Of a stretch of DNA of 15,845 nt, positions 1-15,845 are shown piece after piece (the first letter of the stretch is position 1; the number at the start of each line of letters is the position of its first letter). The stretch is from a virus (Duplodnaviria; Heunggongvirae; Uroviricota; Caudoviricetes): IMG/VR virus record IMGVR_UViG_2609459791_000001, positions 1 to 15,845 of that record; one strand, written 5' to 3'. Made by a program: the position numbers and the translations under genes. The notes under the pieces are model-generated. The model was not told the origin of the DNA. It saw nothing but the letters and a program-made list of their open reading frames with translations, and ran no database searches.

Positions 1-72
1 AATTCGTTGTCAGGATAAGGACAATCAATAAAGGACTTCTGTATGAGTCATACAGAAAGAACAGGATTTTAA

Positions 73-1506
73 ATGAATAAGAAATCGTTATGGAAGCTAA
101 TTCTGATATTAGCGATCCCATGTATTATTGGTTTTATGCCAGCTCCGGCAGGATTAAGCGAACTGGCGTGGGTGCTTTTTGGTATTTACCTGGCGGCCAT
201 TGTGGGGCTGGTTATCAAGCCTTTCCCGGAACCTGTCGTACTGTTAATTGCCGTTGCTGCCTCAATGGTGGTGGTCGGTAACTTATCCGACGGTGCGTTT
301 AAAACCACCGCCGTATTAAGCGGTTACTCTTCAGGTACCACCTGGCTGGTGTTCTCGGCGTTTACCTTAAGCGCCGCATTTGTGACCACCGGTTTAGGTA
401 AACGTATTGCCTATCTGCTGATTGGTAAAATCGGTAACACCACGCTGGGTCTGGGTTACGTTACGGTATTCCTCGATCTGGTACTGGCTCCGGCAACACC
501 GTCTAACACCGCGCGTGCGGGCGGCATTGTGTTACCGATCATCAACAGCGTGGCGGTGGCTTTGGGGTCCGAACCGGAAAAAAGTCCGCGTCGTGTCGGA
601 CATTACCTGATGATGTCCATTTACATGGTCACCAAAACCACCAGCTATATGTTCTTTACCGCAATGGCGGGGAACATTCTGGCGCTGAAAATGATCAACG
701 ACATTCTGCACCTGCAAATTAGCTGGGGTGGATGGGCGCTGGCAGCCGGATTGCCGGGCATCATTATGCTGCTGGTCACCCCGCTGGTGATTTACACCAT
801 GTATCCACCAGAAATTAAGAAGGTGGATAACAAAACCATCGCTAAAGCGGGCCTTGCCGAACTAGGACCGATGAAAATCCGCGAAAAAATGCTGCTCGGT
901 GTCTTTGTGCTGGCGCTGCTGGGCTGGATTTTCAGTAAGTCTCTGGGGGTTGATGAATCCACCGTGGCAATCGTTGTTATGGCAACCATGCTGCTGCTGG
1001 GTATCGTTACCTGGGAAGACGTGGTTAAAAATAAAGGCGGCTGGAATACCTTAATCTGGTACGGCGGTATTATCGGCTTAAGCTCCTTATTATCGAAAGT
1101 TAAATTCTTCGAATGGTTAGCTGAAGTCTTTAAAAATAACCTGGCATTTGATGGTCACGGTAACGTTGCTTTCTTCGTTATTATTTTCCTCAGCATTATC
1201 GTGCGTTATTTCTTCGCTTCCGGTAGTGCCTATATCGTTGCTATGTTACCGGTATTTGCCATGCTGGCGAACGTCTCCGGCGCACCGTTAATGTTAACCG
1301 CGCTGGCACTGTTGTTCTCCAACTCCTATGGCGGCATGGTTACTCACTATGGCGGCGCGGCAGGTCCGGTCATCTTTGGCGTGGGTTATAACGATATTAA
1401 ATCCTGGTGGTTGGTCGGTGCGGTACTGACGATATTAACCTTCCTGGTGCATATCACCCTCGGCGTGTGGTGGTGGAATATGCTGATCGGCTGGAACATG
1501 CTGTAA
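73..1506 (+). CDS. ybhI: Putative inner-membrane anion/carboxylate transporter (DASS-like permease)
   Basis: 477-aa ORF, hydrophobic throughout with many predicted TM segments; position immediately upstream of an aconitase-family gene and ybhC matches the E. coli ybhI-ybhJ-ybhC arrangement next to att-lambda. Confidence 0.85.
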   Translation: MNKKSLWKLILILAIPCIIGFMPAPAGLSELAWVLFGIYLAAIVGLVIKPFPEPVVLLIAVAASMVVVGNLSDGAFKTTAVLSGYSSGTTWLVFSAFTLSAAFVTTGLGKRIAYLLIGKIGNTTLGLGYVTVFLDLVLAPATPSNTARAGGIVLPIINSVAVALGSEPEKSPRRVGHYLMMSIYMVTKTTSYMFFTAMAGNILALKMINDILHLQISWGGWALAAGLPGIIMLLVTPLVIYTMYPPEIKKVDNKTIAKAGLAELGPMKIREKMLLGVFVLALLGWIFSKSLGVDESTVAIVVMATMLLLGIVTWEDVVKNKGGWNTLIWYGGIIGLSSLLSKVKFFEWLAEVFKNNLAFDGHGNVAFFVIIFLSIIVRYFFASGSAYIVAMLPVFAMLANVSGAPLMLTALALLFSNSYGGMVTHYGGAAGPVIFGVGYNDIKSWWLVGAVLTILTFLVHITLGVWWWNMLIGWNML

Positions 1507-1514
1507 ATATACTC

Positions 1515-1628
1515 GTCATACTTCAAGTTGCATGTGCTGCGTTTGCGTTCGCTCACCCCAGTCACTTACTTATGTAAGCTCCTGGGGATTCACTCACTTG
1601 TCGCCTTCCTGCAACTCGAATTATTTAG
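1515..1628. repeat. ERIC (enterobacterial repetitive intergenic consensus) element in the ybhI-ybhJ spacer
   Basis: Contains cgctcaccccagtcacttactt and atgtaagctcctggggattcac, which I recognise as the two halves of the ERIC core (the ERIC2 / ERIC1R primer sequences) in inverted arrangement; flanked by inverted repeat caagttgca / tgcaactcg. Boundaries approximate. Confidence 0.75.
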
Positions 1629-1688
1629 AGTATATCCATTTATTATCTTTCTGCGCACTTCACGGTGCGCAGATATCTGGAGCATTTG

Positions 1689-3950
1689 ATGATCAAGTTA
1701 TCTGAAAAAGGCATGTTTCTCGCCAGTAATAACGAAATAATTGCCGAAGAACATTTCACCGGCGAAATTAAAAAAGAAGAAGCCAAAAAAGGCACTATTG
1801 CCTGGTCTATTCTCTCTTCTCATAATACGTCCGGAAATATGGATAAACTTAAAATTAAGTTTGATTCATTAGCCTCTCACGATATTACCTTTGTTGGTAT
1901 TGTACAGACCGCTAAAGCGTCCGGAATGGAACGTTTCCCGCTGCCGTATGTGCTGACCAACTGCCATAACTCACTCTGCGCCGTCGGCGGCACCATTAAC
2001 GGTGATGACCATGTTTTTGGTTTATCGGCAGCTCAGCGTTATGGCGGTATTTTTGTGCCTCCGCATATTGCGGTCATCCATCAATATATGCGTGAGATGA
2101 TGGCAGGCGGCGGCAAAATGATCCTCGGGTCAGACAGCCACACCCGTTACGGTGCATTAGGGACAATGGCAGTCGGTGAGGGCGGCGGTGAGTTGGTAAA
2201 ACAGCTGCTTAATGACACCTGGGATATCGACTATCCGGGAGTTGTTGCGGTGCATCTGACCGGAAAACCAGCGCCGTATGTGGGGCCGCAGGATGTGGCG
2301 CTGGCTATCATCGGTGCCGTGTTCAAAAACGGCTACGTCAAAAACAAAGTGATGGAATTCGTAGGTCCCGGTGTTGCTGCGCTCTCTACCGATTTCCGTA
2401 ACAGCGTTGACGTTATGACCACTGAAACGACCTGTTTAAGTTCTGTCTGGCAAACCGATGAAGAAGTCCATAACTGGCTGGCGCTGCACGGTCGCGGCCA
2501 GGATTACTGCCAGCTTAACCCTCAACCGATGGCGTACTACGATGGCTGCATCAGCGTTGATTTAAGCGCCATCAAACCAATGATTGCGCTGCCGTTCCAC
2601 CCGAGCAACGTGTATGAAATCGACACACTGAACCAGAACCTGACCGACATTCTGCGTGAGATTGAAATTGAGTCCGAACGCGTGGCGCACGGTAAAGCCA
2701 AACTCTCGCTGCTGGATAAAGTGGAAAATGGTCGCCTGAAAGTGCAGCAGGGGATTATCGCGGGCTGTTCTGGCGGTAACTACGAAAACGTCATCGCGGC
2801 GGCGAATGCACTGCGCGGTCAATCCTGTGGCAATGACACCTTCTCGCTGGCAGTTTACCCGTCATCACAGCCGGTGTTTATGGATCTCGCCAAAAAAGGT
2901 GTGGTAGCAGATTTGATTGGCGCAGGCGCAATCATCAGAACCGCGTTCTGCGGCCCATGCTTTGGCGCGGGCGATACGCCAATCAACAACGGATTAAGTA
3001 TTCGCCACACCACGCGCAACTTCCCGAACCGCGAAGGCTCTAAGCCAGCTAATGGGCAGATGTCAGCGGTGGCGTTGATGGACGCTCGTTCTATCGCTGC
3101 GACTGCGGCAAACGGTGGCTATTTAACCTCTGCCAGCGAACTTGATTGCTGGGACAACGTGCCGGAGTACGCCTTCGATGTAACGCCGTATAAAAACCGT
3201 GTTTATCAGGGCTTTGTGAAAGGGGCAACTCAGCAACCGCTGATTTACGGACCGAACATTAAAGACTGGCCGGAATTGGGTGCGCTGACTGACAATATCG
3301 TCCTGAAAGTGTGCTCGAAGATCCTCGACGAAGTGACCACCACCGACGAACTGATTCCTTCCGGTGAAACCTCTTCTTATCGTTCAAATCCGATTGGTCT
3401 GGCGGAGTTTACCCTGTCACGCCGCGATCCCGGTTATGTTGGCAGAAGTAAAGCGACTGCTGAGCTGGAAAATCAGCGTCTGGCGGGGAATGTCAGCGAG
3501 CTGACAGAGGTGTTTGCGCGCATTAAGCAGATTGCTGGTCAGGAGCATATTGATCCGCTGCAAACTGAAATTGGCAGCATGGTATATGCGGTGAAACCAG
3601 GCGATGGTTCTGCGCGTGAACAGGCGGCGAGCTGCCAGCGTGTGATTGGCGGTCTGGCGAATATTGCCGAAGAGTACGCGACTAAACGCTACCGTTCTAA
3701 CGTCATCAACTGGGGGATGTTACCGCTGCAGATGGCGGAAGTGCCAACCTTTGAAGTGGGGGATTACATTTACATCCCTGGCATTAAAGCGGCGCTGGAT
3801 AATCCGGGTACGACGTTTAAAGGTTATGTGATCCATGAAGATGCGCCGGTAACGGAAATTACGCTCTATATGGAAAGTCTGACTGCTGAAGAGCGCGAGA
3901 TTATCAAGGCGGGTAGTTTGATTAACTTCAATAAAAACCGTCAGATGTAA
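1689..3950 (+). CDS. ybhJ: Aconitase-family hydratase/dehydratase (putative)
   Basis: ORF in track begins at 1665, but ATG at 1689 is preceded by GGAG (1679-1682) and gives 753 aa; contains aconitase-like motifs GSDSHT and CGPCFGAG. Confidence 0.88.
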
Positions 3951-3965
3951 AAAGCGCCATGTGAA

Positions 3966-4172
<207 letters not shown>

Positions 4173-4183
4173 GTTAATTGCTC

Positions 4184-5467
4184 TTACTTCTTCGCCTCTG
4201 CAACCACTTTACTACCCACGCCGCGGTTATTGTATTCCCACATGCGGTTGTAGTTAGTGTCATTCAGATTGCGCTGTATTTCGTCGTTATCATCTACGCT
4301 GCCGGTATTACCCGCAAACGGACGATTAGAGATCACCGCATCGGCCCACGGTTTAGCCGTGTTAAAACCTTCGTTGATGGCGCTATCACGGATCACCACC
4401 TGACCGTTGGTATTGGCATCAACATCCAGCGAGCGGCCCAGTTGCGCCACACCATCACCGAAAGCATTGAAACGGCTGTTTACGGCGAGGAAACCGTAGT
4501 AAATGTTGGACAGCGTAGCCGGTGCAAACACATACGCTTCTTGCTGAGTACGTGAGTTCACCACGCGGAATTCGGTGTTATCGAACACCACTGCGCCGCG
4601 ACCAGAAACGATATCCACATCCCCTTCAATGTAGCTGTTGGTCACCAGCGTACGCGGCTGACGATTCGTTTCCAGACGGTTCTGCACACCGCTGTTGGTG
4701 ACAAAGAAGGTGTTCTGACGACCGAGAATGTTAACGTTGTTAATCTGTACCTGGTCACCATCAGTACGCAGTGCCACCGCCGGATGGTTACCTACATCTA
4801 CGCTATCGCCCAGCGTGTTTTCGATGGTCAGATTTTGCAGTTGCAGGCCATTGTTTTGTGACCAGAAGACCGCAGAGCAGAGAACACCGATACTGTCGCT
4901 GCGTTTGCTCTGGCAGCTATCGTACATATACCACGCTGGTTTACCTGGCATATATTTGCCGCGCGGGTTGACGTCGTGACGCCAGTCGGCAGGGCTCATG
5001 CCACCATCAAGGGAAAGCCCAATCTTCACATCAATCGGTTTTTCACCTGTACCGTACAGAGTAATTCCACCCGGAGCGGCAGGGACATATACCGTTCCCT
5101 GATACTCACCAGGCATCACGGCAATATACTGGCGCTTGTTGGTACGCTTGATAATTGCCGCATCTACCGCCGCCTGAATCGTGGTATGCGTTACACCTTG
5201 AGTGCCCGCCGGGCCGACAACAAAGTCAGGTTGCGCAGGCAGGGTAATCGGGGAAGGATTCCACGCTGCAGCACCTGGTGTCAGGGATGCAAAATAGTGT
5301 TGAGCATCGAAATTCTGCGCTTCTTTTGCCGACAGAATCGGGCGAGAAGAGGTACCAGGCGCGGTTTGATCAGAAGGACGTTGATCGGGCGGAGTTGAGC
5401 TACAGGCGGTCAGCGTCACGCCAAAAGCCAATGCCAGCGCCAGACGGGAAACTGAAAATGTGTTCAC
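4184..5467 (-). CDS. ybhC: Outer-membrane lipoprotein, pectin-methylesterase-like family
   Basis: 427-aa ORF; GTG start at 5467 with GGAG upstream; N-terminal signal peptide with lipobox LTAC; pectinesterase-like segments (AVALRTDGDQ, GDVDIVSGRGAVVFDNTEF); last chromosomal gene before the att core. Confidence 0.85.
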   Translation of the reverse strand: MNTFSVSRLALALAFGVTLTACSSTPPDQRPSDQTAPGTSSRPILSAKEAQNFDAQHYFASLTPGAAAWNPSPITLPAQPDFVVGPAGTQGVTHTTIQAAVDAAIIKRTNKRQYIAVMPGEYQGTVYVPAAPGGITLYGTGEKPIDVKIGLSLDGGMSPADWRHDVNPRGKYMPGKPAWYMYDSCQSKRSDSIGVLCSAVFWSQNNGLQLQNLTIENTLGDSVDVGNHPAVALRTDGDQVQINNVNILGRQNTFFVTNSGVQNRLETNRQPRTLVTNSYIEGDVDIVSGRGAVVFDNTEFRVVNSRTQQEAYVFAPATLSNIYYGFLAVNSRFNAFGDGVAQLGRSLDVDANTNGQVVIRDSAINEGFNTAKPWADAVISNRPFAGNTGSVDDNDEIQRNLNDTNYNRMWEYNNRGVGSKVVAEAKK

Positions 5468-5499
5468 AGGTTGCTCCGGGCTATGAAATAGAAAAATGA

Positions 5500-5601
5500 A
5501 TCCGTTGAAGCCTGCTTTTTTATACTAAGTTGGCATTATAAAAAAGCATTGCTTATCAATTTGTTGCAACGAACAGGTCACTATCAGTCAAAATAAAATC
5601 A
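5500..5601. other. attL: attL (B-O-P') of a lambda-type integrase; 15-bp core GCTTTTTTATACTAA at 5514-5528 followed by the P' arm
   Basis: Exact lambda att core sequence; sequence to the right (gttggcattataaaaaagcattgcttatcaatttgttgcaacgaacaggtcactatcagtcaaaataaaatcattatttgatttc) matches what I remember of the lambda P' arm with arm-type Int sites; int gene immediately adjacent. Confidence 0.9.
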
Positions 5602-6672
5602 TTATTTGATTTCAATTTTGTCCCACTCCCTGCCTCTGTCATCACGATACTGTGATGCCATGGTGTCCGACTTATGCCCGAGAAGATGTTGAGCAAACTT
5701 ATCGCTTATCTGCTTCTCATAGAGTCTTGCAGACAAACTGCGCAACTCGTGAAAGGTAGGCGGATCCCCTTCGAAGGAAAGACCTGATGCTTTTCGTGCG
5801 CGCATAAAATACCTTGATACTGTGCCGGATGAAAGCGGTTCGCGACGAGTAGATGCAATTATGGTTTCTCCGCCAAGAATCTCTTTGCATTTATCAAGTG
5901 TTTCCTTCATTGATATTCCGAGGGCATCAACATGCAATGCTGTTGGGATGGCAATTTTTACGCCTGTTTTGCTTTGCTCGACATAAAGATATCCATCTAC
6001 GATATCAGACCACTTCATTTCGCATAAATCACCAACTCGTTGCCCGGTAACAACAGCCAGTTCCATTGCAAGTCTGAGCCAATATGGTGATGATTCTGCT
6101 GCTTGATAAATTTTCAGGTATTCGTCAGCCGTAAGTCTTGATCTCCTTACCTCTGATTTTGCTGCGCGAGTGGCAGCGACAGGGTTTGTTGTTATATGGC
6201 CTTCAGCTATTGCCTCTCGGAATGCATCGCTCAGTGTTGATCTGATTAACTTGGCTGACGCCGCCTTGCCCTCGTCTATGTATCCATTGAGCATTGCCGC
6301 AATTTCTTTTGTGGTGATGTCTTCAAGTGGAGCATCAGGCAGACCCCTCCTTATTGCTTTAATTTTGCTCATGTAATTTATGAGTGTCTTCTGCTTGATT
6401 CCTCTGCTGGCCAGGATTTTTTCGTAGCGATCAAGCCATGAATGTAACGTAACGGAATTATCACTGTTGATTCTCGCTGTCAGAGGCTTGTGTTTGTGTC
6501 CTGAAAATAACTCAATGTTGGCCTGTATAGCTTCAGTGATTGCGATTCGCCTGTCTCGGCCTAATCCAAACTCTTTACCCGTCCTTGGGTCCCTGTAGCA
6601 GTAATATCCATTGTTTCTTATATAAAGGTTAGGGGGTAAATCCCGGCGCTCATGACTTCGCCTTCTTCCCAT
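5602..6672 (-). CDS. int: Tyrosine integrase, lambda Int type
   Basis: 356-aa ORF; translation (MGRRRSHERRDLPPNLYIRNNGYYCYRDPRTGKEFGLG..., C-terminal ...HELRSLSARLYEKQ...LLGHKSDTMASQYRDDRGREWDKIEIK) matches lambda Int as I remember it, including the catalytic-domain HxxR and Tyr region; adjacent to att. Confidence 0.95.
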   Translation of the reverse strand: MGRRRSHERRDLPPNLYIRNNGYYCYRDPRTGKEFGLGRDRRIAITEAIQANIELFSGHKHKPLTARINSDNSVTLHSWLDRYEKILASRGIKQKTLINYMSKIKAIRRGLPDAPLEDITTKEIAAMLNGYIDEGKAASAKLIRSTLSDAFREAIAEGHITTNPVAATRAAKSEVRRSRLTADEYLKIYQAAESSPYWLRLAMELAVVTGQRVGDLCEMKWSDIVDGYLYVEQSKTGVKIAIPTALHVDALGISMKETLDKCKEILGGETIIASTRREPLSSGTVSRYFMRARKASGLSFEGDPPTFHELRSLSARLYEKQISDKFAQHLLGHKSDTMASQYRDDRGREWDKIEIK

Positions 6673-6868
6673 TTCTGATCCTCTTCAAAAGGCTACCTGT
6701 TACTGGTCGATTTAAGTCAACCTTTACCGCTGATTCGTGGAACAGATATTCTCTTCCATCCTTAACCGGAGGAGGGAATATCCTGCATTCGCGCACCCAT
6801 CGACGAACTGTTTCAAGGCTTCTTGGGCGTCGCTGGCGAGCGTTCCACTCCTGAAGTGTCAAGTACAT
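6650..6868 (-). CDS. xis: Excisionase, lambda Xis type
   Basis: 72-aa ORF MYLTLQEWNARQRRPRSLETVRRWVRECRIFPPPVKDGREYLFHESAVKVDLNRPVTGSLLKRIRNGKKAKS, overlapping the int start by 23 nt as in lambda. Confidence 0.95.
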   Translation of the reverse strand: MYLTLQEWNARQRRPRSLETVRRWVRECRIFPPPVKDGREYLFHESAVKVDLNRPVTGSLLKRIRNGKKAKS

Positions 6869-7084
6869 CGCAAAGTCTCCGCAATTACACGCAAGAAAAA
6901 ACCGCCATCAGGCGGCTTGGTGTTCTTTCAGTTCTTCAATTCGAATATTGGTTACGTCTGCATGTGCTATCTGCGCCCACAGCATCCAGTGGTCATAGCA
7001 GTCGCTGATGTTCTCGGCTTCGATAACTCTGTTGAATGGTTCTCCATTCTATTCACCTGTAACTCGGAAGTGCATTTATCATCG

Positions 7085-7142
7085 CCATAAAACAAAACTC
7101 GCCGTAGCGAGTTCAGATAAAAGAAAACCCGCACTCGGCGGG
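7085..7142 (-). terminator. Tandem rho-independent terminator-like hairpins for leftward transcription, upstream of xis
   Basis: On the minus strand: hairpin cccgccgagtgcggg (7128-7142) followed by a U-rich run, and hairpin actcgctacggcgagt (7097-7112) followed by ttttgtttt. Confidence 0.5.
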
Positions 7143-7164
7143 TTCGCATTCGTTCAAATTGCGT

Positions 7165-7446
7165 TTACTTCTTGGCGTTCTGTTCATCCATATCGATATA
7201 CCATGGGTTGCTTCCCTTGGGCATGTTTAACGACTGCTCGCGATAGTATCTGATGCGCTCCATGAAATACTCGCGTGAGTGCTCAGGTTGCTCTCATGAT
7301 ACCTGCTCAGTGATAACAGGTATGTTAAGGCGCTCTCTGTACTCCATGCCTGATGCTGCAAGGTCAACGTTTACCTTGTTCTGTTTTTCTTTCGATTTCT
7401 CGGCGATGTTATGCCTGACATTGTCAACCCGCCTCCTTCTGAACAT
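7165..7446 (-). pseudogene. ea8.5: ea8.5-like reading frame (282 nt) interrupted by one in-frame TGA at codon 51
   Basis: ATG at 7446 (minus) to TAA at 7165-7167 is a single frame of 94 codons with one internal TGA (7294-7296): MFRRRRVDNVRHNIAEKSKEKQNKVNVDLAASGMEYRERLNIPVITEQVS*EQPEHSREYFMERIRYYREQSLNMPKGSNPWYIDMDEQNAKK. Length and distance from xis match where I remember lambda ea8.5 (93 aa). Identity to lambda Ea8.5 is not verified. Confidence 0.4.
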
Positions 7447-7666
7447 AACGGTTATAAATCAGTCCCTGAGGGCCATAAGGAAGCGGGATGTGCAACTCCT
7501 CTGGTTCAGAAACTATCCATTCCCCGGCCATCTCCGCTGGAGAGGTAATGATAAGTTGTTTGCTAATAAAAGGACCACTCCTCTCAACAACAAGCTTACC
7601 ATCTTCATTAATAAAAGCTTGGATGTCAGGTGTGCTTCCACACTTGGTGATGCAGCGTTTGAACAT
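7424..7666 (-). CDS. Hypothetical small phage protein (80 aa), accessory region beside xis
   Basis: ORF in track 7424-7708; internal ATG at 7666 is preceded by GGGGGA at appropriate spacing, giving MFKRCITKCGSTPDIQAFINEDGKLVVERSGPFISKQ...; overlaps the ea8.5-like start by 23 nt in another frame; co-directional with the 191-aa gene. Confidence 0.5.
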   Translation of the reverse strand: MFKRCITKCGSTPDIQAFINEDGKLVVERSGPFISKQLIITSPAEMAGEWIVSEPEELHIPLPYGPQGLIYNRYVQKEAG

Positions 7667-7792
7667 TTTGTGTCCCCCCATTTTATGGACGGGGTAATTA
7701 TAACACATTGAAATATAGTAATATTTGACGTAGATTTCTTTTGATCTATAAGCGATTTTTTAATGCTTTTAAGTTATAAATACTTGTTTTCA

Positions 7793-8368
7793 TCACCCAT
7801 CTTGCTGCGGTGCTACTATTGAAAAGTACTCACACCCTTTAGCCCAAATAGTTTTGATAGTTGTCCAACTGACTGGAACCTTGATTTCGATTCTTCCGCT
7901 GCCGTCACAAGTTTCGCAATCATCATCACCAAAGCATTCCGGGCAGCTTATAAACGTAGTTTCTGAAAATTCACCGGATAGCACACCCTTAGCGCCGTTC
8001 TCAGCGGTTAGTTTCTTCGGCACTATAACCCAACCATCCGGAGTTACCGGAGAGTTGCCATTTATATCGAAGTTTGGCTCTGCGTCCTGAACCAGGAGGA
8101 TGTAACCATTCTTGGCAGTATCAAGTTCTAACGCCTCGGTGACGGTACCGAAATAGCGATTACCTAAATCCGCATCACAAGTGCTTACATCAATGGAAAC
8201 CTCCATGCCTTCGATTAATTCTGGCAAGTTGTAAGTTTGGCTTACAGGTTCTGCTCCCAGTGATGCCAGTGCAATTCGTGCCAGTTCCATTTGTTCGCCA
8301 CGAGTAAGCCCGTTTTCAAGCGGATTTTTAATGAACAATTCAATACGTTCTTTGGTAATAGTGGTCAT
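7793..8368 (-). CDS. Hypothetical phage protein (191 aa) with C-terminal DnaJ-like CxxCxGxG zinc-finger motif
   Basis: ORF with good SD (AAGGA, 8 nt before ATG at 8368); C-terminal CPECFGDDDCETCDGSG gives two CxxC pairs in CxxCxGxG-type spacing; acidic N-terminal two-thirds. No family recognised from memory. Confidence 0.65.
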   Translation of the reverse strand: MTTITKERIELFIKNPLENGLTRGEQMELARIALASLGAEPVSQTYNLPELIEGMEVSIDVSTCDADLGNRYFGTVTEALELDTAKNGYILLVQDAEPNFDINGNSPVTPDGWVIVPKKLTAENGAKGVLSGEFSETTFISCPECFGDDDCETCDGSGRIEIKVPVSWTTIKTIWAKGCEYFSIVAPQQDG

Positions 8369-8597
8369 TTGTTAGTCCTTAAACTGCTAGTTGCAATTGC
8401 ATTTCAAAGCGGTCGCGTTGTTCACAATACGCAAGAGAACCAGGGCTATTGTGTGCCTCAAACTGCAAATACCTTCCAACGAAACGCTCCAGAAATAAAC
8501 GCAAGCCAATCCCAAAAGAATCTGACGTAAAAACCTTCAATTACACAGCTCACCTGTGGGATATCCGGTGGCTAAGATATCGTGCGAGGAAATGACA
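8369..8597. promoter_or_regulatory. Divergent intergenic region between leftward accessory genes and rightward nin-like genes; contains 10-bp perfect palindrome tgcaattgca (8392-8401)
   Basis: Only non-coding stretch separating the leftward and rightward gene blocks; occupies the place where a complete lambdoid phage has its whole early/immunity region. Promoter elements not confidently identified. Confidence 0.3.
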
Positions 8598-8939
8598 ATG
8601 GATTATTCACAGTTAAGTGATTTTGAAATTAACAGAATGGTAGGAGACATAATTTTTAAAGGCCTTTGGGCAAGTAAACCGGAAACATCAGGGAATAACA
8701 CCAACAAATGGTATTACGGAAATGCTGATACAACTTTTGAGCCATTAAATCATTTGCCTGACTACTGCAATGATCCGAGCGCTTCATGGCCGATTATTGA
8801 GAAATACAGGATTTCTATCTTAGACCAGTTAACTGAATGGTGTGTGGATGCAAAAGGCGTAAGCCCAATATTTGATACCAGACCTCTCCGCGCCGCCATG
8901 ATTGTCTTTCTCCTGATGCAGGAGGCCAATAATGCTTAG
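8598..8939 (+). CDS. Hypothetical phage nin-region protein (113 aa; possibly NinX/DUF2591-like)
   Basis: ORF in track starts at GTG 8556; ATG at 8598 lies 7 nt after GAGGA (8586-8590). Family assignment is from weak recollection only. Confidence 0.5.
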
Positions 8940-9020
8940 CCCATCTCAATCCCTTCAATACCTGAAAGGAAGCATAGAGCGGGCTTCAATGTGCACAGAG
9001 TGGATTCTATCTAGGTTTAG

Positions 9021-9149
9021 CGCATACAGAAGATTGCCGGTAAAGGGCATGCCAAGCAAGTCGATGCTGCATATGCAAAAGAATGCGCGCTGGAAGGTAT
9101 GGCGAGAACACAGGTTATCTGGCTGAAAGAGGGGGTTATTAAGGCGTGA
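9021..9149 (+). pseudogene. ybcO: 3' remnant of a ybcO-like (DUF1364) gene, lacking its 5' part
   Basis: Frame ending at TGA 9147-9149 reads ...[30 protein letters not shown], matching the C-terminus of DLP12 YbcO as I remember it, and overlaps the rusA start as in DLP12; in-frame stops at 9012-9014 and 9018-9020 and no start codon mean only about 42 codons remain. The 64-aa track ORF 8932-9126 is a different frame across the same DNA. Confidence 0.5.
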
Positions 9150-9508
9150 ATACCTACAGCATCACATTACCCTGGCCTCCGAGTAATAATCGCTATTACC
9201 GCCATAATCGCGGGCGCACGCACGTCAGCGCAGAGGGGCAGGCATACCGCGATAACGTCGCCCGAATCATTAAAAACGCAATGCTGGATATCGGCCTGAC
9301 TATGCCTGTGAAAATCCGCATTGAGTGCCACATGCCGGATCGCCGTCGCCGTGACCTGGATAATCTGCAAAAAGCCGCTTTTGACGCACTCACTAAAGCA
9401 GGTTTCTGGCTGGATGATGCTCAGGTCGTTGATTACCGCGTTGTGAAGATGCCTGTTACCAAAGGTGGGAGGCTGGAACTGACCATCACCGAAATGGGGA
9501 ATGAATGA
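9146..9508 (+). CDS. rusA: Holliday-junction resolvase RusA
   Basis: 120-aa ORF (GTG start) [51 protein letters not shown]...[31 protein letters not shown], matches DLP12 RusA closely from memory. Confidence 0.9.
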
Positions 9509-9730
9509 TGTTTGAGTTTAATATGGCAGAACTTCTTCGCCACCGCTGGATGCGCCTGCGCTTATATCGTTTCCCCAGTTCTGTTTTGACCGATTACCGA
9601 ATACTGAGGAATTACGCCAAAACCCTGACAGGAGCAGGAGTATGAAGTCAGAGATAACAATCAACTAATACTGTTTTATTGATTTTTGCTTGTAATTGGC
9701 GTTCTGGTCTGATTTTTGTGGAGTAAGTTG

Positions 9731-10114
9731 ATGCGTGATATTCAGATGGTTCTTGAGCGTTGGGGAGCGTGGGCGGCTAATAATCATGAAGATGTGACCT
9801 GGTCGTCCATTGCCGCCGGTTTTAAGGGATTAATTACTTCAAAAGTAAAATCTCGCCCGCAATGTTGTGACGATGACGCTATGATCATTTGCGGGTGCAT
9901 GGCCCGTCTGAAAAAGAACAACAGCGATTTGCACGATTTATTAGTAGATTATTATGTAGTCGGTATGACATTCATGTCACTGGCAGGTAAGCATTGCTGC
10001 TCTGATGGTTATATCGGGAAAAGGTTACAGAAGGCTGAGGGCATAATTGAAGGGATGTTAATGGCATTAGATATCCGGTTAGAGATGGATATCGTTGTTA
10101 ATAACTCTAATTAA
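9731..10114 (+). CDS. Q: Late-gene antiterminator Q (phage 82 / DLP12 QuuD type)
   Basis: Track ORF starts at TTG 9716; ATG at 9731 gives 127 aa [26 protein letters not shown]... with Cys-rich zinc-binding region ([18 protein letters not shown]); position rusA-Q-lysis is canonical. Confidence 0.85.
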
Positions 10115-10127
10115 TACGCCAATTATT

Positions 10128-10292
10128 TACTAAAAGTTATTAAAAATGGGGCGTTGAAACGCCCCCAAAAATAAAGGGTAATATATAACAGAAGGTTTGT
10201 ATAGTTAGAAGCAAGGTTGTGCTTCTAAAGGAAGTGGCTTGAGGGAGCCACTTATATGTTGGGGAGGCAAAGCCTCCCACAACATATCTTTT
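10128..10292. terminator. Cluster of four stem-loops between convergent Q and porin genes (likely porin terminator(s) and Q-dependent late leader / tR-prime equivalents)
   Basis: Hairpins ggggcgttgaaacgcccc (10148-10165; U-run on minus strand), agaagcaaggttgtgcttct, gtggcttgagggagccac, and a long stem atatgttggggaggc-aaa-gcctcccacaacatat (about 10254-10290; followed by cttttag on plus strand). Confidence 0.5.
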
Positions 10293-10302
10293 AGTAATCA
10301 AA

Positions 10303-11385
10303 TTAGAACTGGTAAACCATACCTACAGCAACGATATCATCGGTAGCAACGCCAGATGCTTTCGTGAAATCGCTCTTATCAATCAGGTTGATTTTGTAGT
10401 CAACAAAAGTGGACATATTTTTGTTGAAGTAATAGGTTGCACCTACATCAACATATTCAACCAGGTCCTGATCACCCCAAACACCCAAGTCTTTTCCTTT
10501 AGAATGCAGGTAAGCAACGGATGGACGCAGGCCGAAGTCGAACTGATATTGTGCAACAGCTTCGAAGTTTTGTGCTTTGTTGGCAATATGGTTATTACCA
10601 AAAACAGTCATGTTCTGGGTTTCAGAATAGGTGGTGGCCAGATAGATGTTGTTCGCATCATATTTCAGACCAGCTGCCCATACTTCAGCATTTTGACCAG
10701 AAGCATTCAGACCGTTGTTACCGTAGATAACCTGATTATTAGTGCGATCAGATTTAGCATAGGTTGCACCCACGCCGAATCCTTCATACTCATAAGTAGT
10801 TGAGAAACCGAAACCATCGCCATTAGCTTCAGTTACTTCATTTCGGTCATTTTTGCCCTGATACTGAGCTGCAAAGTTCAGGCCATCAACCAGACCAAAG
10901 AAGTCGTTGTTACGATAAGTTGCAACACCTGTGGTGCGACCAGTCATGAATACATCTGTTTGGGTCCAGGTATCGCCACCGAATTCTGGCAGAACGTCAG
11001 TCCACGCACCGATGTCGTATGCTACACCGTAGTTACGGCCGTAATCGATTGAGCCGTAGTCACCGAATTTCAGGCCTGCAAATGCAAGACGGGTTTTGTC
11101 TTTGGAGGAACCTTGAGATTCAGCGCGGTTGCCTTTGAATTCATATTCCCACTGACCGAAACCAGTCAGTTGATCGTTGATTTGGGTTTCACCTTTGAAG
11201 CCAAGACGGGCATAAGTAGTATCACCATCATCTGCATCATTAGAGGAGAAGTAGTGCTTAGCATTAACTTTCCCGTACAGATCCAGCTTGTTACTGTCTT
11301 TATTATAAATTTCAGCTGCCTGAGCAGACATCGCCATCAGTACTGATGCAGCTACAGCAGAAATTGCCACTGTTAATTTTTTCAT
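10303..11385 (-). CDS. nmpC: Phage-encoded outer-membrane porin, OmpC/OmpF family (Lc / NmpC-like), apparently intact
   Basis: 360-aa ORF with signal peptide [23 protein letters not shown], porin-typical N-terminal AEIYNKD...KLDLYGK and C-terminal ...VAVGMVYQF ending in aromatic residue; located between Q and the lysis genes as in PA-2 and DLP12. Confidence 0.9.
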
Positions 11386-11974
11386 CGTGAGCCCTTTTTT
11401 TTGAACTATTATTAAAAAATGATGTCACTGCGCGATAAATATTCATCTAATCAATGTGATTATTTCAAGATGTAAGTTTTAGTTTCTCGTTTAATTTGTG
11501 AAGTAGATCTCTATTTTTATCTGAACTTTTTTCTATCGAATCCTATTCATGGCTCTTGGCTGAATAAAAATAAATCTATTAGCCAATTTATATTAATGGC
11601 TGTTATTTATAAGTGCTCTATAATTTGAAGGTTCAATTTAAATTGGCTAAAAATAACGCTGGAAATTATTTATTGGTTATTTGTTAAGATTTTCTTATGT
11701 ATTTGTGGTGGAGTTTTGAACACTCGGTAGCATTCTCATAAATATCATTCAGTGGTTTACGTACGTAAAAAATTGGTTATGCTGTTAAGAGTGGTTACTT
11801 CGTCACACAGCTTAAACCCGCCGTCGAGCTGGTTTTTCCATTTTTTGAGTCTCGATATTAGCTGATAACTCAATACCTGAGTTATTCACTGACTCCGAGT
11901 CTGTTACGTTTCTGCTTTTTTGCGATACGTTGTATTCCCTCAATTTACACCCGCTTTGTCTGCGAGGTGGGGTT
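11386..11974. promoter_or_regulatory. AT-rich 590-bp intergenic region: porin promoter/regulatory region and leader of lysis operon
   Basis: Long strongly AT-rich spacer directly upstream of the minus-strand porin start, with no ORF of 60 aa or more in the track; individual promoter elements not resolved. Confidence 0.3.
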
Positions 11975-12190
11975 ATGAAATCCATGGATAAGTTAACAAC
12001 GGGTGTCGCCTATGGCACCTCAGCAGGTAGTGCCGGTTACTGGTTTTTACAGCTGCTCGATAAAGTCACGCCCTCACAGTGGGCGGCAATTGGAGTGCTG
12101 GGTAGCCTGGTATTTGGCCTGCTGACGTACCTGACAAACCTTTATTTCAAGATTAAAGAAGATAAGCGCAAGGCTGCGAGAGGTGAATAA
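11975..12190 (+). CDS. S: Class II holin (pinholin), phage 21 S type, with dual start motif
   Basis: Track ORF from 11930; ATG at 11975 gives 71 aa [71 protein letters not shown], two TM segments and Met1/Met4 dual starts as in S21. Confidence 0.85.
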
Positions 12191-12687
12191 TGCCTCCATC
12201 ATTACGAAAAGCCGTTGCTGCTGCTATTGGTGGCGGAGCAATTGCTATAGCATCAGTGTTAATTACTGGCCCAAGTGGTAACGATGGTCTGGAAGGTGTC
12301 AGCTACATACCATACAAAGATATTGTTGGTGTATGGACTGTATGTCACGGGCATACAGGAAAAGACATCATGCTCGGTAAAACGTATACCAAAGCAGAAT
12401 GCAAAGCCCTCCTGAATAAAGACCTTGCCACGGTCGCCAGACAAATTAACCCGTACATCAAAGTCGATATACCGGAAACAATGCGCGGCGCTCTTTACTC
12501 ATTCGTTTACAACGTGGGTGCTGGCAATTTCAGAACATCGACGCTTCTTCGCAAAATAAACCAGGGCGATATCAAAGGCGCATGTGATCAGCTACGTCGC
12601 TGGACATATGCTGGCGGTAAGCAATGGAAAGGGCTGATGACTCGCCGTGAGATTGAGCGTGAAGTCTGTTTGTGGGGGCAGCAATGA
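12190..12687 (+). CDS. R: SAR endolysin (lysozyme, T4-lysozyme-like fold) R21/RrrD type
   Basis: 165 aa; start ATG overlaps holin stop (TAATG); N-terminal Gly/Ala-rich weakly hydrophobic SAR segment [20 protein letters not shown] followed by lysozyme domain. Confidence 0.9.
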
Positions 12688-13151
12688 GCAGAGTAACTGC
12701 GATTATCTCCGCTCTGGTTATCTGCATCATCGTCTGCCTGTCATGGGCTGTTAATCATTACCGTGATAACGCCATTACCTACAAAGCCCAGCGCGACAAA
12801 AATGTCAGAGAACTGAAGCTGGCGAACGCGGCAATTACTGACATGCAGATGCGTCAGCGTGATGTTGCTGCGCTCGATGCAAAATACACGAAGGAGTTAG
12901 CTGATGCGAAAGCTGAAAATGATGCTCTTCTGCGGAAGCTTGATAATGGTGGCAGGGTGCTCGTCAAAGGAAAATGCCCTGTGCCATCCTCTGCCGAAAC
13001 CTCCAGCGCCTCCGGCATGGGCAATGATGCCACCGTCGAACTCTCTCCAGTTGCTGGACGAAACGTTCTCGATATCCGGGACGGAATTATCCGCGACCAA
13101 ACAGCACTGAGAACGCTTCAGGAATACATTAGGACGCAATGCCTTCGATGA
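12684..13151 (+). CDS. Rz: i-spanin Rz
   Basis: ATG at 12684 overlaps R stop (ATGA); N-terminal TM segment then coiled-coil-like charged region; contains embedded +1-frame lipoprotein gene. Confidence 0.8.
12904..13110 (+). CDS. Rz1: o-spanin Rz1 (outer-membrane lipoprotein), embedded in Rz in the +1 frame
   Basis: 68-aa [26 protein letters not shown]... with lipobox MVAGC and proline-rich mature region ([16 protein letters not shown]), wholly inside Rz. Confidence 0.7.
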
Positions 13152-13327
13152 TAGCGATAATTTTACTCATCATCCTTCACATCTGGCTCTGTAGACAGGG
13201 TGGTGATCACTTCTGGAGTAAATCCAGATTAAACATCTCATTGCTGATGCTTGATATTGAGCATCTGGCGCGCAGTAAGGGGCTGCGTTGAGATAAGAGC
13301 CAGTTCATTACAAATACCAGGATTTAG

Positions 13328-13350
13328 CCTCGCATTCGCGGGGCTTTTTA
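13328..13350 (+). terminator. Possible rho-independent terminator downstream of Rz
   Basis: cctcgc-attc-gcgggg stem-loop (one G-U pair) followed by cttttta. Confidence 0.35.
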
Positions 13351-13493
13351 TATCTGAATTTCACAGCGCATCTCACGCGCATATTAACGAGAGCCTTTCA
13401 GTAAGCGAGCCTGAGAAATGCCGTTATAGGTGGCGACCTCTCTCGGGCGGCTTTTCTGTGAGACAGGCTCACTTTCTAAAAGGTAAAGACGCT

Positions 13494-14018
13494 ATGAATA
13501 ATCATTCAGTTATTCCAGCCTTCGACTTCCGAGAAATGGTGCAAGCCAAAAACGGAGAGGTCGTTACCACATCCAGAAAAATTGCCAAGTACTTCGGCAA
13601 GCGACACGGTGATGTTCTCAGGAAAATCGAGCAGGTTAAGGCTGATTGCTCGCGTGAGTTTAGCCAACGCAATTTTGCGTCGGCTGATTATATCGATGAG
13701 CAGGGCAAGGTTCGCCCGATGTACAGCCTGACGAAAGATGGCTGGATCATGGTTGTGATGGGGTTCACCGGGAAAGCTGCTGCGGCAATCAAGGAGAGCT
13801 ATATCGCAGCATTCAACTGGATGGCAGAACAACTGAGCCGCCGCATGGCAATTGGCGAAGAAATGCAGCACCGCTACGCCATCAAAGAAACACGCTCAAA
13901 GCTGAAAGGTACGATCGGCAGTCGGTTAATGAACGAACGGAAGAAAGAGAAGCGTGTCCTGGCTGTCGAGCATGAATACATCTTGCAGGTGACACAGCCT
14001 GAACTGCTGATTAATTGA
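13494..14018 (+). CDS. rha: Rha-family phage regulatory protein (174 aa)
   Basis: ATG at 13494 preceded by AAGGTAAAG; N-terminal region VTTSRKIAKYFGKRHGDVLRKIE is the characteristic Rha-domain motif; the longer TTG-initiated frame from 13251 is rejected as a 5' extension. Confidence 0.7.
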   Translation: MNNHSVIPAFDFREMVQAKNGEVVTTSRKIAKYFGKRHGDVLRKIEQVKADCSREFSQRNFASADYIDEQGKVRPMYSLTKDGWIMVVMGFTGKAAAAIKESYIAAFNWMAEQLSRRMAIGEEMQHRYAIKETRSKLKGTIGSRLMNERKKEKRVLAVEHEYILQVTQPELLIN

Positions 14019-14320
14019 AGATGTCATTACAAAGCCTATCTACGGGGGGCTTGATAATGGCTTATACCCTGCACGGGATAACTTAACTGATATCCCTTTT
14101 AACGGATAAAGGTATTCAAGCCTGACACATCATGCGCTGTATCGTCGCCGTATTCCCGCATTAACCATGACCGTAGCCTGACGGGGAATTCCTTCTGCGT
14201 GAGTGTGCGGGAATAATCAAAAACGATGCACACCGGGTTATTAACGCGTCAACTGAACGCGGGGTTGCTCTTCATGTCAGCCAGTCCGGTGCAGGGGTAG
14301 AAGAAACCGGACGTTATGGT

Positions 14321-14731
14321 TTAGTGTGGAAACATTTGTGATGTGCTCTGTATGTTTTCAGTAAAGAGTAATGAATTATCAAAGGTATAGTAATATCTTT
14401 TTTGTTCGTGGATATTTGTAACCCACCGAAAAACTCCTGCTTTAGCAAGGTTTCTTCTGTATTCCTGAAATGTGATCTCTCTGGATTTCAGCTTATTAGA
14501 GGTCGTTTCTATAAGATGCCTATCCTTTGAAAATTTGACAGACACAATGTTTTTTAGGCCCTTTAATAACACTGTATTATCATTTTTTAATACAATATGA
14601 ACATTCTCTGTGGCTAAATAGTAAATGTAATGTGAGACATTGTGACGTTTTAGCTCAGAATAAAACCATTGATAGTTTAAATCGTTTCGAACTTTATCAA
14701 ATATTTGTTTAAAAATGACTACCTGATCCAT
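14321..14731 (-). CDS. DUF1398 / YbcV-like protein (136 aa), AT-rich moron gene
   Basis: Track ORF starts at 14746; second ATG at 14731 follows GGAAGG at good spacing and gives 136 aa; visibly lower G+C than flanking phage DNA; resembles DLP12 YbcV in size, position (between Rz and terminase) and, from memory, sequence. Confidence 0.6.
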
Positions 14732-14790
14732 AGATAAACCTTCCATGTGATATGAGGGGGGGCGTAGTCTGCACGATTATCTAAATTGCT

Positions 14791-15024
14791 TCAATCTGGT
14801 CTGATCTGTTTTCTGAGCAATTCAGTAATGTCACTCTTTTCTTTGTTTGCTTCAGGAGAAACTCTTTTTTCTGAGCACAGTCTCCGGCGGCAGGCTTCAA
14901 TGACCCAGGCTGAGAAATTCCCGGACCCTTTTTGATCAAGAGCGATGTTAATTTGTTCAATCATTTGGTTAGGAAAGCGGATGTTGCGGGTTGTTGTTCT
15001 GCGGGTTCTGTTCTTCGTTGACAT
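14791..15024 (-). CDS. Ribbon-helix-helix (Arc/MetJ/CopG-like) DNA-binding protein, 77 aa
   Basis: Basic N-terminal tail (MSTKNRTRRTTTRNIRFPNQ) followed by RHH-like pattern IRFPNQMIEQINIALDQKGSGNFSAWVIEACRRRL (beta strand, helix A, G-x-S/N turn, helix B); immediately upstream of and co-directional with the DUF1398-like gene. Confidence 0.6.
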   Translation of the reverse strand: MSTKNRTRRTTTRNIRFPNQMIEQINIALDQKGSGNFSAWVIEACRRRLCSEKRVSPEANKEKSDITELLRKQIRPD

Positions 15025-15223
15025 GAGGTTGTCCCGTATTCAGTGTCGCTGATTTGTATTGTCTGAAGTTGTTTTTACGTTAAGTTGATGCAGATCAATT
15101 AATATGATACCTGCGTCATAATTGATTATTTGACGTGGTTTGATGGCGTAGATGCACGTTGTGACATGCAGATGATAATTATTATCATTTTGCGGGTCCT
15201 TTCCGGCGATCCGACAGGTTACG

Positions 15224-15412
15224 GGGCGGCGACCTCGCGGGTTTTCGCTATTTATGAAAATTTTCCGGTTTAAGGCGTTTCCGTTCTTCTTCGTCGTAAC
15301 TTAATGTTTTTATTTAAAATACCCTCTGAAAAGAAAGGAAGCGACAGGTGCTGAAAGCGAGCTTTTTGGCCTCTGTCGTTTCCTTTCTCTGTTTTTGTCC
15401 GTGGAATGAACA
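15224..15412. other. cos: cos site, lambda type: cosN 12-nt cohesive-end sequence GGGCGGCGACCT (15224-15235) followed by cosB (terminase R sites / IHF site)
   Basis: Sequence ccgacaggttacg-GGGCGGCGACCT-cgcgggttttcgctatttatgaaaattttccggtttaaggcgtttccgttcttcttcgt matches the lambda genome ends as I remember them with a few substitutions; Nu1 starts about 190 bp downstream as in lambda. Confidence 0.85.
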
Positions 15413-15845
15413 ATGGAAGTCAACAAAAAGCAGCTGGCTGACATTTTCGGTGCGAGTATCCGTACCATTCAGAACTGGCAGGAACAGGGAATGCCCGTTC
15501 TGCGAGGCGGTGGCAAGGGTAATGAGGTGCTTTATGACTCTGCCGCCGTCATAAAATGGTATGCCGAAAGGGATGCTGAAATTGAGAACGAAAAGCTGCG
15601 CCGGGAAGTTGAAGAACTGCGGCAGGCCAGCGAGACAGATCTCCAGCCAGGGACTATTGAGTACGAACGCCATCGACTTACGCGTGCGCAGGCCGACGCA
15701 CAGGAGCTGAAAAATGCCAGAGACTCCGCTGAAGTGGTGGAAACCGCATTCTGTACTTTCGTGCTGTCGCGGATCGCAGGTGAAATTGCCAGTATTCTCG
15801 ACGGGATCCCCCTGTCGGTGCAGCGGCGTTTTCCGGAACTGGAAA
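15413..15845 (+). CDS. nu1: Terminase small subunit Nu1 (5' part; runs off window end)
   Basis: ATG at 15413; translation MEVNKKQLADIFGASIRTIQNWQEQGMPVLRGGGKGNEVLYDSAAVIKWYAERDAEIENEKLRREVEELRQ... matches lambda Nu1 (winged HTH at N-terminus). Not in ORF track because no stop occurs within the window. Confidence 0.9.
   Translation, partial: MEVNKKQLADIFGASIRTIQNWQEQGMPVLRGGGKGNEVLYDSAAVIKWYAERDAEIENEKLRREVEELRQASETDLQPGTIEYERHRLTRAQADAQELKNARDSAEVVETAFCTFVLSRIAGEIASILDGIPLSVQRRFPELE

Follow-up and report, generated by a model that had tools for sequence, protein, structure and literature searches.

An ordinary rha gene behind a conserved, covarying RNA leader in a DLP12-like prophage, and a proposed translational lock on late-operon cargo

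The window analysed here is a stretch of 15,845 nucleotides (nt) of tailed-phage DNA (Caudoviricetes; IMG/VR record IMGVR_UViG_2609459791_000001, positions 1 to 15,845), which was identified as a DLP12-like defective lambdoid prophage adjoining ybhC. Directly after its Rz gene, the window carries a gene of the Rha family, separated from Rz by 342 bp. The locus raises two questions: why a Rha-family gene lies at the end of a lysis cassette, and what the region in front of it does. It was found that the gene and its position are textbook, with nothing new in either, and that the interesting part of the locus is a 128-nt RNA leader (13366-13493), which the initial annotation, made by a model from the DNA letters alone, had not seen. 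We consider it probable that this is an ordinary rha gene in a 674-bp cassette whose conserved leader, having two alternative folds, acts as a two-state translational lock on late-operon cargo. Coordinates are those of the window, and features lie on its plus strand unless stated otherwise.

Structure and covariation of the leader

The stretch 13152-13510 (359 nt) has a better predicted fold than its shuffles (z = -3.85). The initial annotation had proposed a single structured leader of 340 bp here; the structure is borne out but the extent is not, because only 13351-13493 of the upstream region travels with the gene. These 143 nt, the first of the cassette, consist of a spacer (13351-13365) followed by the leader itself.

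The leader begins with a short hairpin, P1 (13366-13380; GCGC, loop AUCUCAC, GCGC), which was present in all 50 aligned members, with 99.5% of cells paired and one compensatory change from C-G to U-A. It is followed by a long, imperfect hairpin of 92 nt, Y (13393-13484), with a minimum free energy (MFE) of -46.8 kcal/mol. At the base of Y, an anti-Shine-Dalgarno strand (GCCUUU..AG..AAG) pairs with CUU..CU..AAAGGU, such that the Shine-Dalgarno (SD) region AAAGGU (13479-13484) is predicted to be buried in the stem. The upper part of Y is formed by the pairings GAGCCUG/CAGGCUC, AGAAA/UUUCU and GCCGUU/GGCGGC and by the apical hairpin AGGU-GGCG-ACCU. A further helix, A:A', crosses Y: its 5' strand CGAGAG (13388-13393) lies just 5' of Y, and its 3' strand CUCUCG (13440-13445) is part of the internal loop that adjoins the apical hairpin on its 3' side. 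The 5' strand directly adjoins the base of Y and pairs about 26 bp up the stem, a geometry that suggests that A:A' excludes the anti-SD:SD helix.

The pairings of this model are maintained by compensatory change. When 50 members were aligned to the model, 93.3% of cells were paired, and 30 of the 42 pairs changed on both sides, relative to a mean of 12 in shuffles (none of 500 shuffles reached 30) and 6 to 13 in slid controls. The anti-SD:SD base helix (helix 4) is among those that covary, as in columns 60-187, 62-185 and 64-183 with compensatory pair types. RNAalifold applied to a MAFFT alignment that had not been fitted to the structure recovered P1 and three helices of the upper Y, with 11 of 21 pairs compensatory. 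Because G-U pairs are frequent and the reverse strand scored 28 bits compared to 162 bits for the plus strand, the fold is that of RNA transcribed from the plus strand.

Helix A:A', which is 6 to 7 bp long, was found in at least 12 compensatory versions across the leader family. In addition to the window type CGAGAG/CUCUCG, these are CCCGAG/CUCGGG, CCAAGAG/CUCUUGG, CCGAGAG/CUCUCGG, ACCCGAG/CUCGGGU, CGCAGAG/CUCUGCG, AGAGAG/CUCUCU and CCAAA/UUUGG, as well as GAAAGU/ACUUUC in a second copy in phi80, CCAAAGA/UCUUUGG and CACAGAA/UUCUGUG in front of the ant and rha genes, respectively, of a phage encoding Shiga toxin 2 (Stx2), and CCACCGA/UCGGUGG in P22.

Two short elements, UGAG (13412-13415) and YCURUG (13456-13460), form a two-helix junction with a 6-7-nt bulge that is invariant even in P22 and the Stx2 phage, while the flanking helices covary. 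A protein or an RNase may recognise this junction. An invariant ligand-binding core of the kind found in riboswitches was not seen in the leader: some members, such as the second phi80 copy and L011-2, have altered or missing loops and apical hairpins, and only UGAG and YCURUG are constant.

Other candidate elements in the leader were discarded. The inner hairpin 13420-13451 with its U-run, considered as a terminator or as the 3' end of a small RNA, loses the U-run in Stx2, P22 and other versions, and the U-run covaries as a helix strand. The ATG of a three-codon open reading frame (ORF), ATGCCGTTATAG, is not conserved; a hairpin UUUCAG:CUGAGA predicted in an early fold showed no covariation when variants were compared by eye; and a kink-turn at the bulge was a poor fit on inspection.

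Spread of the leader and its cargo

The leader is near-invariant among the window and phages phi80, HK639, Omnitron and ENT1, even though the coding sequences are only about 79% identical. Its core pattern matched at least 119 IMG/VR contigs, and the 250-nt stretch around it occurred in 91 distinct versions among the loci collected. By blastn, 159 phage records were found to contain the leader, among them HK620 (before hkbK), HK106, Sf101, epsilon34, g341c, SPN3UB and many Shiga-toxin (Stx) phages. Of 5426 complete E. coli genomes, 641 (about 12%) have close versions by megablast, which are never annotated as RNA. With a covariance model, true copies were found in Yersinia, Serratia, Pantoea, Rahnella, Buttiauxella, Pluralibacter, Shimwellia and other genera. 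Diverged copies that share the architecture but little sequence identity precede rha in P22 and both ant and rha in the Stx2 phage phiON-2011, and phi80 has its second copy before gene 66. No copy was detected in lambda, Gifsy-1, K-12 DLP12 or mEp460, or elsewhere in the P22 genome. In phiON-2011 (L176), the two copies (17157-17312 and 18522-18673) flank Rz, with the ant copy lying between R and Rz.

At least six unrelated types of ORF were found 3' of the leader. They include Rha proteins of several lineages and KilA-N proteins, both groups having an ORF11CD3 tail in some members, as well as T5orf172/MUG113 proteins, ANT/KilAC proteins, and proteins with HNH_3 and AP2 domains. The Stx2 phage phiON-2011 has a further Rha-family gene in its early region, and this one is without a leader. 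Given the varied cargo and the leaderless early gene, the leader belongs to the late-region slot and not to Rha genes as such.

A search of the leader against Rfam 15 gave no match, either at the gathering threshold or at E <= 10, the best score being 19 bits to mir-627, which has a gathering threshold of 86. No description of the leader was found in the searchable literature, including searches by the leader's own sequence. Therefore, it is apparently undescribed, and it is unannotated in P22, phi80, HK620 and the Stx2 phages.

Several existing records cover the leader with other features. The rha start is annotated inside the conserved noncoding leader in P22 (L004, 2405), phi80 (L001, 2632), HK639 (L005, 2093) and Chronis (L010, 1566), and a minus-strand ORF of phi80, PHI80_65 (L001, 4122-4421), overlaps the second leader copy. 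These upstream starts and PHI80_65 are probably misannotations. Two contigs from a metagenome-assembled genome labelled 'Bacillota bacterium' (L194 and L200) carry near-identical copies of the enterobacterial leader followed by T5orf172 and Rha genes, which is probably due to contamination in binning.

The rha gene, its slot and its cassette

The rha gene (13494-14018) encodes 174 amino acids (aa). In the N-terminal part, residues 25-111 form a Rha DNA-binding domain, and the C-terminal part is a conserved helical module (approximately residues 107-170). The start of the gene was placed at the ATG at 13494, which is also used in RefSeq, where 13494-14018 is annotated as a Rha family transcriptional regulator. 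The feature of initiation that is conserved across leader versions is this ATG with AAGG at -11 to -14. The family assignment made in the initial annotation was confirmed by a profile search: Pfam Phage_pRha (PF09669) matched residues 25-111, counted from the ATG at 13494, with 99.1 bits relative to a cut-off of 29.9 (E = 2.2e-28), and a match to phrog_518 spans residues 1-172. Over 99% of its length, the protein shares 73% identity with phi80 Rha, and it is 37% identical to P22 Rha. The 243 homologues found, drawn from many Enterobacterales, span the entire protein and are every one named Rha. In terms of sequence, the window gene is thus an ordinary orthologue of phi80 rha, a known family in a known place.

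The C-terminal half (KETRSKLKGTIGSRLMNERKKEK) is the most conserved portion of the Rha family. No Pfam match was found for residues 101-174 even at E <= 10, including to ORF11CD3 (PF10549), and BLASTP of the C-terminal half against an ORF11CD3 tail gave no match. Profile comparison of residues 107-174 with the ORF11CD3-type tails of cassette proteins by hhalign gave a probability of 92% (E = 6e-7, 17% identity). This suggests that the Rha C terminus is distantly related to ORF11CD3 without being a member by the curated Pfam test. An AlphaFold2 model of the protein, with a predicted local distance difference test score of 83.8, shows an alpha/beta domain at the N terminus and, after it, two long helices. 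A Foldseek comparison of this model with the PDB returned weak matches, mostly to winged-helix regulators (PadR/MarR; best E = 0.017), and a sequence search against the PDB found no match.

The order of genes in the window is rusA, ylcG, quuD, an intact porin gene (minus strand), essD, rrrD, Rz/Rz1, a 50-aa ORF, rha, a DUF1398 gene and a YlcI/YnfO gene (both minus strand) and nohD. Rz occupies 12672-13151 and Rz1 12904-13110, and the rha ORF is next on the plus strand. In lambda and K-12 DLP12, bor/borD lies immediately 3' of Rz on the opposite strand, and homology between the window and K-12 DLP12 stops at 12929 and restarts at 14133, leaving a non-homologous segment of 12929-14132. Therefore, rha is in the bor position, as the initial annotation had recognised, and replaces bor between Rz and the ybcV homologue.

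The gene is said to have been named rha in phages phi80 and P22, by Henthorn and Friedman in 1995. In phi80, rha is the next late-strand gene after Rz/Rz1, from which an annotated terminator separates it, and it is annotated as "DNA synthesis inhibition in IHF- hosts"; in P22 it immediately follows gene 15/Rz1, also on the late strand. The same arrangement was found in HK639, 2B8, Chronis and the Stx2 phage phiON-2011. A late-region Rha gene co-oriented with its neighbours, which the initial annotation had regarded as unusual, thus sits in the canonical slot for rha, after Rz/Rz1 and before the packaging genes. The P22 gene (orf201) is a late-operon gene that is detrimental to lytic growth when IHF is absent (PMC4936722).

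The 342 bp between Rz and rha were found to consist of three parts. The first, 13152-13325, is backbone sequence also present in phages that lack rha (mEp460 and Ayreon). The second is a predicted intrinsic terminator (13326-13349), a stem-loop AGCCTCGC-ATTC-GCGGGGCT at 13326-13345 with 8 pairs, 6 of them G-C, and a 4-nt loop, followed by TTTTT to 13349; the initial annotation had placed this hairpin at 13328-13350. Homologous hairpins in phi80 and HK639 carry a terminator annotation, and in other phages the stems differ and the T-run is retained. A hairpin with a T-run was found at most 70 nt upstream in 105 of the 118 distinct leader versions. The third part is the 143 nt that travel with the gene.

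The limits of the cassette were set by mEp460, in which the otherwise collinear site is empty. This site retains the terminator, and so the hairpin belongs to the backbone directly upstream of the cassette. Because the sequence 4 nt after the terminator in mEp460 is that of window position 14025 onward, the rha cassette, defined by these junctions and by mosaic matches, is 13351-14024, or 674 bp, comprising spacer, leader and ORF. In the sense of a gene inserted between sequences that adjoin each other in phages lacking it, the cassette is a moron. In the sense of a unit with its own sigma-70 promoter and terminator it is not, as consensus scans found no promoter-like site on the plus strand and no terminator after 14018.

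On the right-hand side, a hairpin with the stem AAGCC..GGCUU (14032-14052) lies in a conserved linker (14025-14110); it has no T-run and was not scored as a terminator. Short linkers (14020-14059 and 14047-14110; L003, 2225-2300) recur 3' of unrelated cassette ORFs, and in the empty site of mEp460 the first of these folds as a clean 10-bp hairpin. These downstream linkers look like right-hand cassette boundaries.

The 50-aa ORF (13139-13291; WP_001139682.1, phrog_11822; a hypothetical protein in RefSeq) belongs to the backbone, outside the rha cassette, and is also present in mEp460, a phage without rha. Over 32 versions, the differences at codon positions 1, 2 and 3 number 71, 13 and 29, and one version has an in-frame stop. 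Coding is therefore unsupported, and this annotated ORF may be no gene.

Elsewhere in the window, the porin gene (10303-11385, minus strand), which lies between Q and the lysis genes, is intact, encodes 360 aa and is annotated as ompC; its K-12 DLP12 counterpart is nmpC, which is split by IS5. An Rfam match to naRNA4, a nucleoid-associated noncoding RNA derived from REP sequences, was found at 4045-4115 with 60.7 bits, barely above the gathering threshold of 59.5.

A proposed translational lock, its alternatives and its relatives

In the full-length leader folded at 37 °C, the predicted probability of being unpaired was at most 0.05 for 5 of the 6 SD bases and 0.11 for the first A, and the SD remained buried at up to 45 °C. 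In MFE structures of nascent RNA ending just 3' of A', helix A:A' was present in 52 of 65 distinct members, compared to none of the 65 full-length MFE structures. Because the SD is predicted to be paired, and because A:A' appears in the nascent RNA but never in the full-length MFE structure, a two-state translational lock is the best-supported model. The leader combines a covarying SD:anti-SD helix with a second covarying pairing that, judging from topology, would be exclusive of it, as is expected of an SD-sequestering leader.

The source of transcription, the effect on translation and the switching are read in this model from predicted folds and genomic context, as follows. The cassette would be entered only by terminator-resistant late transcription under the Q antiterminator, a route proposed as the sole one because a terminator lies upstream in so large a share of the leader versions and because no plus-strand promoter was seen. 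On the emerging transcript, the 5' helix A:A' would form first and delay closure, or else a factor would stabilise A:A'. While 13388-13393 is paired with the loop at 13440-13445, the base of Y could not form, and a short or conditional window for ribosome entry would result. At equilibrium, Y would then pair the upstream CCUUU tract with the SD, locking it away and leaving the message translationally closed. The outcome would be limited synthesis of a DNA-binding protein able to harm phage growth. If the gene is reached only by Q-modified late transcription, it would be under a double lock, which would suit a product that is harmful to phage growth, and the same leader would serve swappable cargo (Rha, KilA-N, Ant/KilAC, T5orf172 and HNH-AP2 proteins).

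Several points weigh against the lock. Late read-through into the cassette is assumed, the promoter scan being empty. MFE folding cannot model pseudoknots, and A:A' might coexist with the upper Y instead of alternating with it. Pairing of 6 or more of the 10 nt upstream of the AUG was seen in the full-length MFE structure of only 36 of 65 members. The alignment derived from the covariance model leans toward the structure on which that model was built. In addition, P1 and the invariant UGAG/YCURUG junction are left unexplained by the lock, as is the reported IHF dependence of rha; a scan for the IHF consensus gave one site with 1 mismatch (13500-13512), which is not above chance.

The leader could instead be a static structured RNA, a pseudoknot or a long hairpin that serves processing or stability, for example as an RNase III site that separates the cargo mRNA from the lysis transcript and frees or protects the ribosome-binding site. 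In the lambda N leader and in T7 early mRNAs, hairpins of this kind are substrates of RNase III. Y is suitably long and imperfect with internal loops, the constancy of the bulged junction amid covarying helices is suggestive of a recognition site, and P1 followed by an AU-rich linker resembles a module for processing or for protection of the 5' end. Such a role would not explain the strict upkeep of A:A', a helix that crosses Y, and we regard it as unlikely, although it is the alternative that survives best.

Considerably less probable is that the leader is a self-contained unit with its own promoter, in which P1 would be an operator palindrome between a -35-like element (TTCACA/GTAAAC) and a -10-like element (TATTAA), and transcription would yield, in the manner of IsrK/c4, a short RNA with its 3' end at the inner hairpin GCCG..CGGC-UUUUCU and a read-through mRNA. 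P1 is indeed palindromic and has an AT-rich hexamer 3-4 nt before the hairpin, which in L120 is a perfect TATAAT; a U-run follows the inner hairpin in leader types A and B; and IsrK provides a precedent of dual short and long RNAs that control an antirepressor-like gene (PMC4825925). In conflict with this are the lack of any sigma-70-like site on the plus strand, the fact that the -35 and -10 hexamers are the least conserved part, and the loss of the -35-like spacer in 16 versions in which the terminator abuts P1. The U-run is broken or missing in the Stx2, P22, second phi80, L136 and L167 types and covaries with a 5' A-run as a helix, and the window has no match to the Rfam isrK or C4 models, while Gifsy-1 gives both.

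The leader could also be conserved without any RNA function, merely as a homologous linker for cassette exchange or by recent transfer. The short conserved linkers on both flanks of the cassette, the joining of one leader to many different ORFs and the mosaic nature of phage genomes would be in keeping with this. Homology predicts identity rather than compensatory double changes, whereas most pairs covary and A:A' recurs in its many complementary versions, and the diverged P22 and Stx2 leaders keep the architecture at little sequence identity; a pure linker is therefore strongly disfavoured and very improbable.

The view taken in the initial annotation, that of an unusual late Rha gene with a single leader and possibly a separate transcript or a longer protein from a TTG at 13251, is scarcely tenable, since, although the frame is open from 13251 and several GenBank records place the start upstream of the ATG, the position is canonical, the upstream frame is broken in the majority of leader versions (26 of 68 distinct ones have a stop no more than 30 nt from the ATG), 1-nt insertions or deletions separate types A and B, and the ATG with its AAGG is the conserved feature. 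The upstream starts TTG 13251 and GTG 13458 were both rejected for the in-frame stops in many leader versions, and the open stretch is incidental.

Compared with known systems, the window rha is closest to those of phi80 and P22: the genes are orthologous, share position, strand and upstream leader family, and differ in nothing essential, except that the window gene sits in a defective DLP12-like prophage. Like morons such as bor, as described by Juhala and Hendrix, the cassette is a discrete extra gene present or absent between conserved late-region neighbours. Unlike bor, which is on the opposite strand with its own signals, the rha cassette is co-oriented with the late genes, has no recognisable promoter or downstream terminator, and has a shared RNA leader.

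In the maturation gene of MS2, where folding is delayed, and in hok mRNA, which has metastable structures, the SD is paired at equilibrium and an early alternative helix forms. The leader is predicted to be similar, with an upstream complement that pairs the SD at equilibrium and an early helix that would delay closure, its kinetics being only predicted; MS2 and hok are unrelated to it in sequence and context.

A second likeness is to IsrK-orf45-anrP of Gifsy-1 and c4-icd-ant of phages P1 and P7, in which a structured leader RNA silences an antirepressor-like gene and alternative pairings decide translation; for the window, this is a prediction. The leader RNA of the Gifsy-1 module keeps an antirepressor-like gene translationally silent (PMC4825925). 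IsrK differs in its place, which is after Q and not after Rz; its promoter has been mapped, its terminator works, and its action is in trans via an upstream ORF, none of which is evident in the window. Homology to IsrK/c4 was rejected, as the models RF01394, RF01695 and RF03163 gave no match to 13100-13560 at E <= 10, whereas Gifsy-1, the positive control, scored 79, 69 and 48 bits. The isrK locus of Gifsy-1 (L173, 34131-34329, minus strand) also matches the Rfam C4 antisense RNA and c4-a1b1 models, and by sequence IsrK-orf45-anrP looks like a c4/ant immunity module of the phage P1 type. The leader resembles in kind the SD-sequestering leaders with delayed or alternative folding, and in purpose it resembles IsrK.

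More tentatively, the 128-nt leader could represent a new family of phage mRNA switches, in which two exclusive covarying pairings gate swappable, potentially toxic DNA-binding proteins (Rha, KilA-N, Ant, T5orf172 and HNH) where the lysis cassette ends, in phages of Enterobacterales that are lambdoid, P22-like or Shiga-toxin phages. The signal might be, for example, how fast Q-modified polymerase transcribes, or an RNase or a host factor, and the leader could be the missing cis element that accounts for the dependence of rha expression on IHF, an observation 30 years old.

A strongly covarying RNA has thus gone unannotated in some of the best-studied phages, P22, phi80 and HK620, as well as in Stx2 phages, which have one copy in front of ant and another in front of rha next to their lysis genes. 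With it, the annotated start codons of several reference genomes are corrected, and a whole class of cargo genes in late operons gains a shared control module. It also offers a handle on how genes of the rha type stay harmless.

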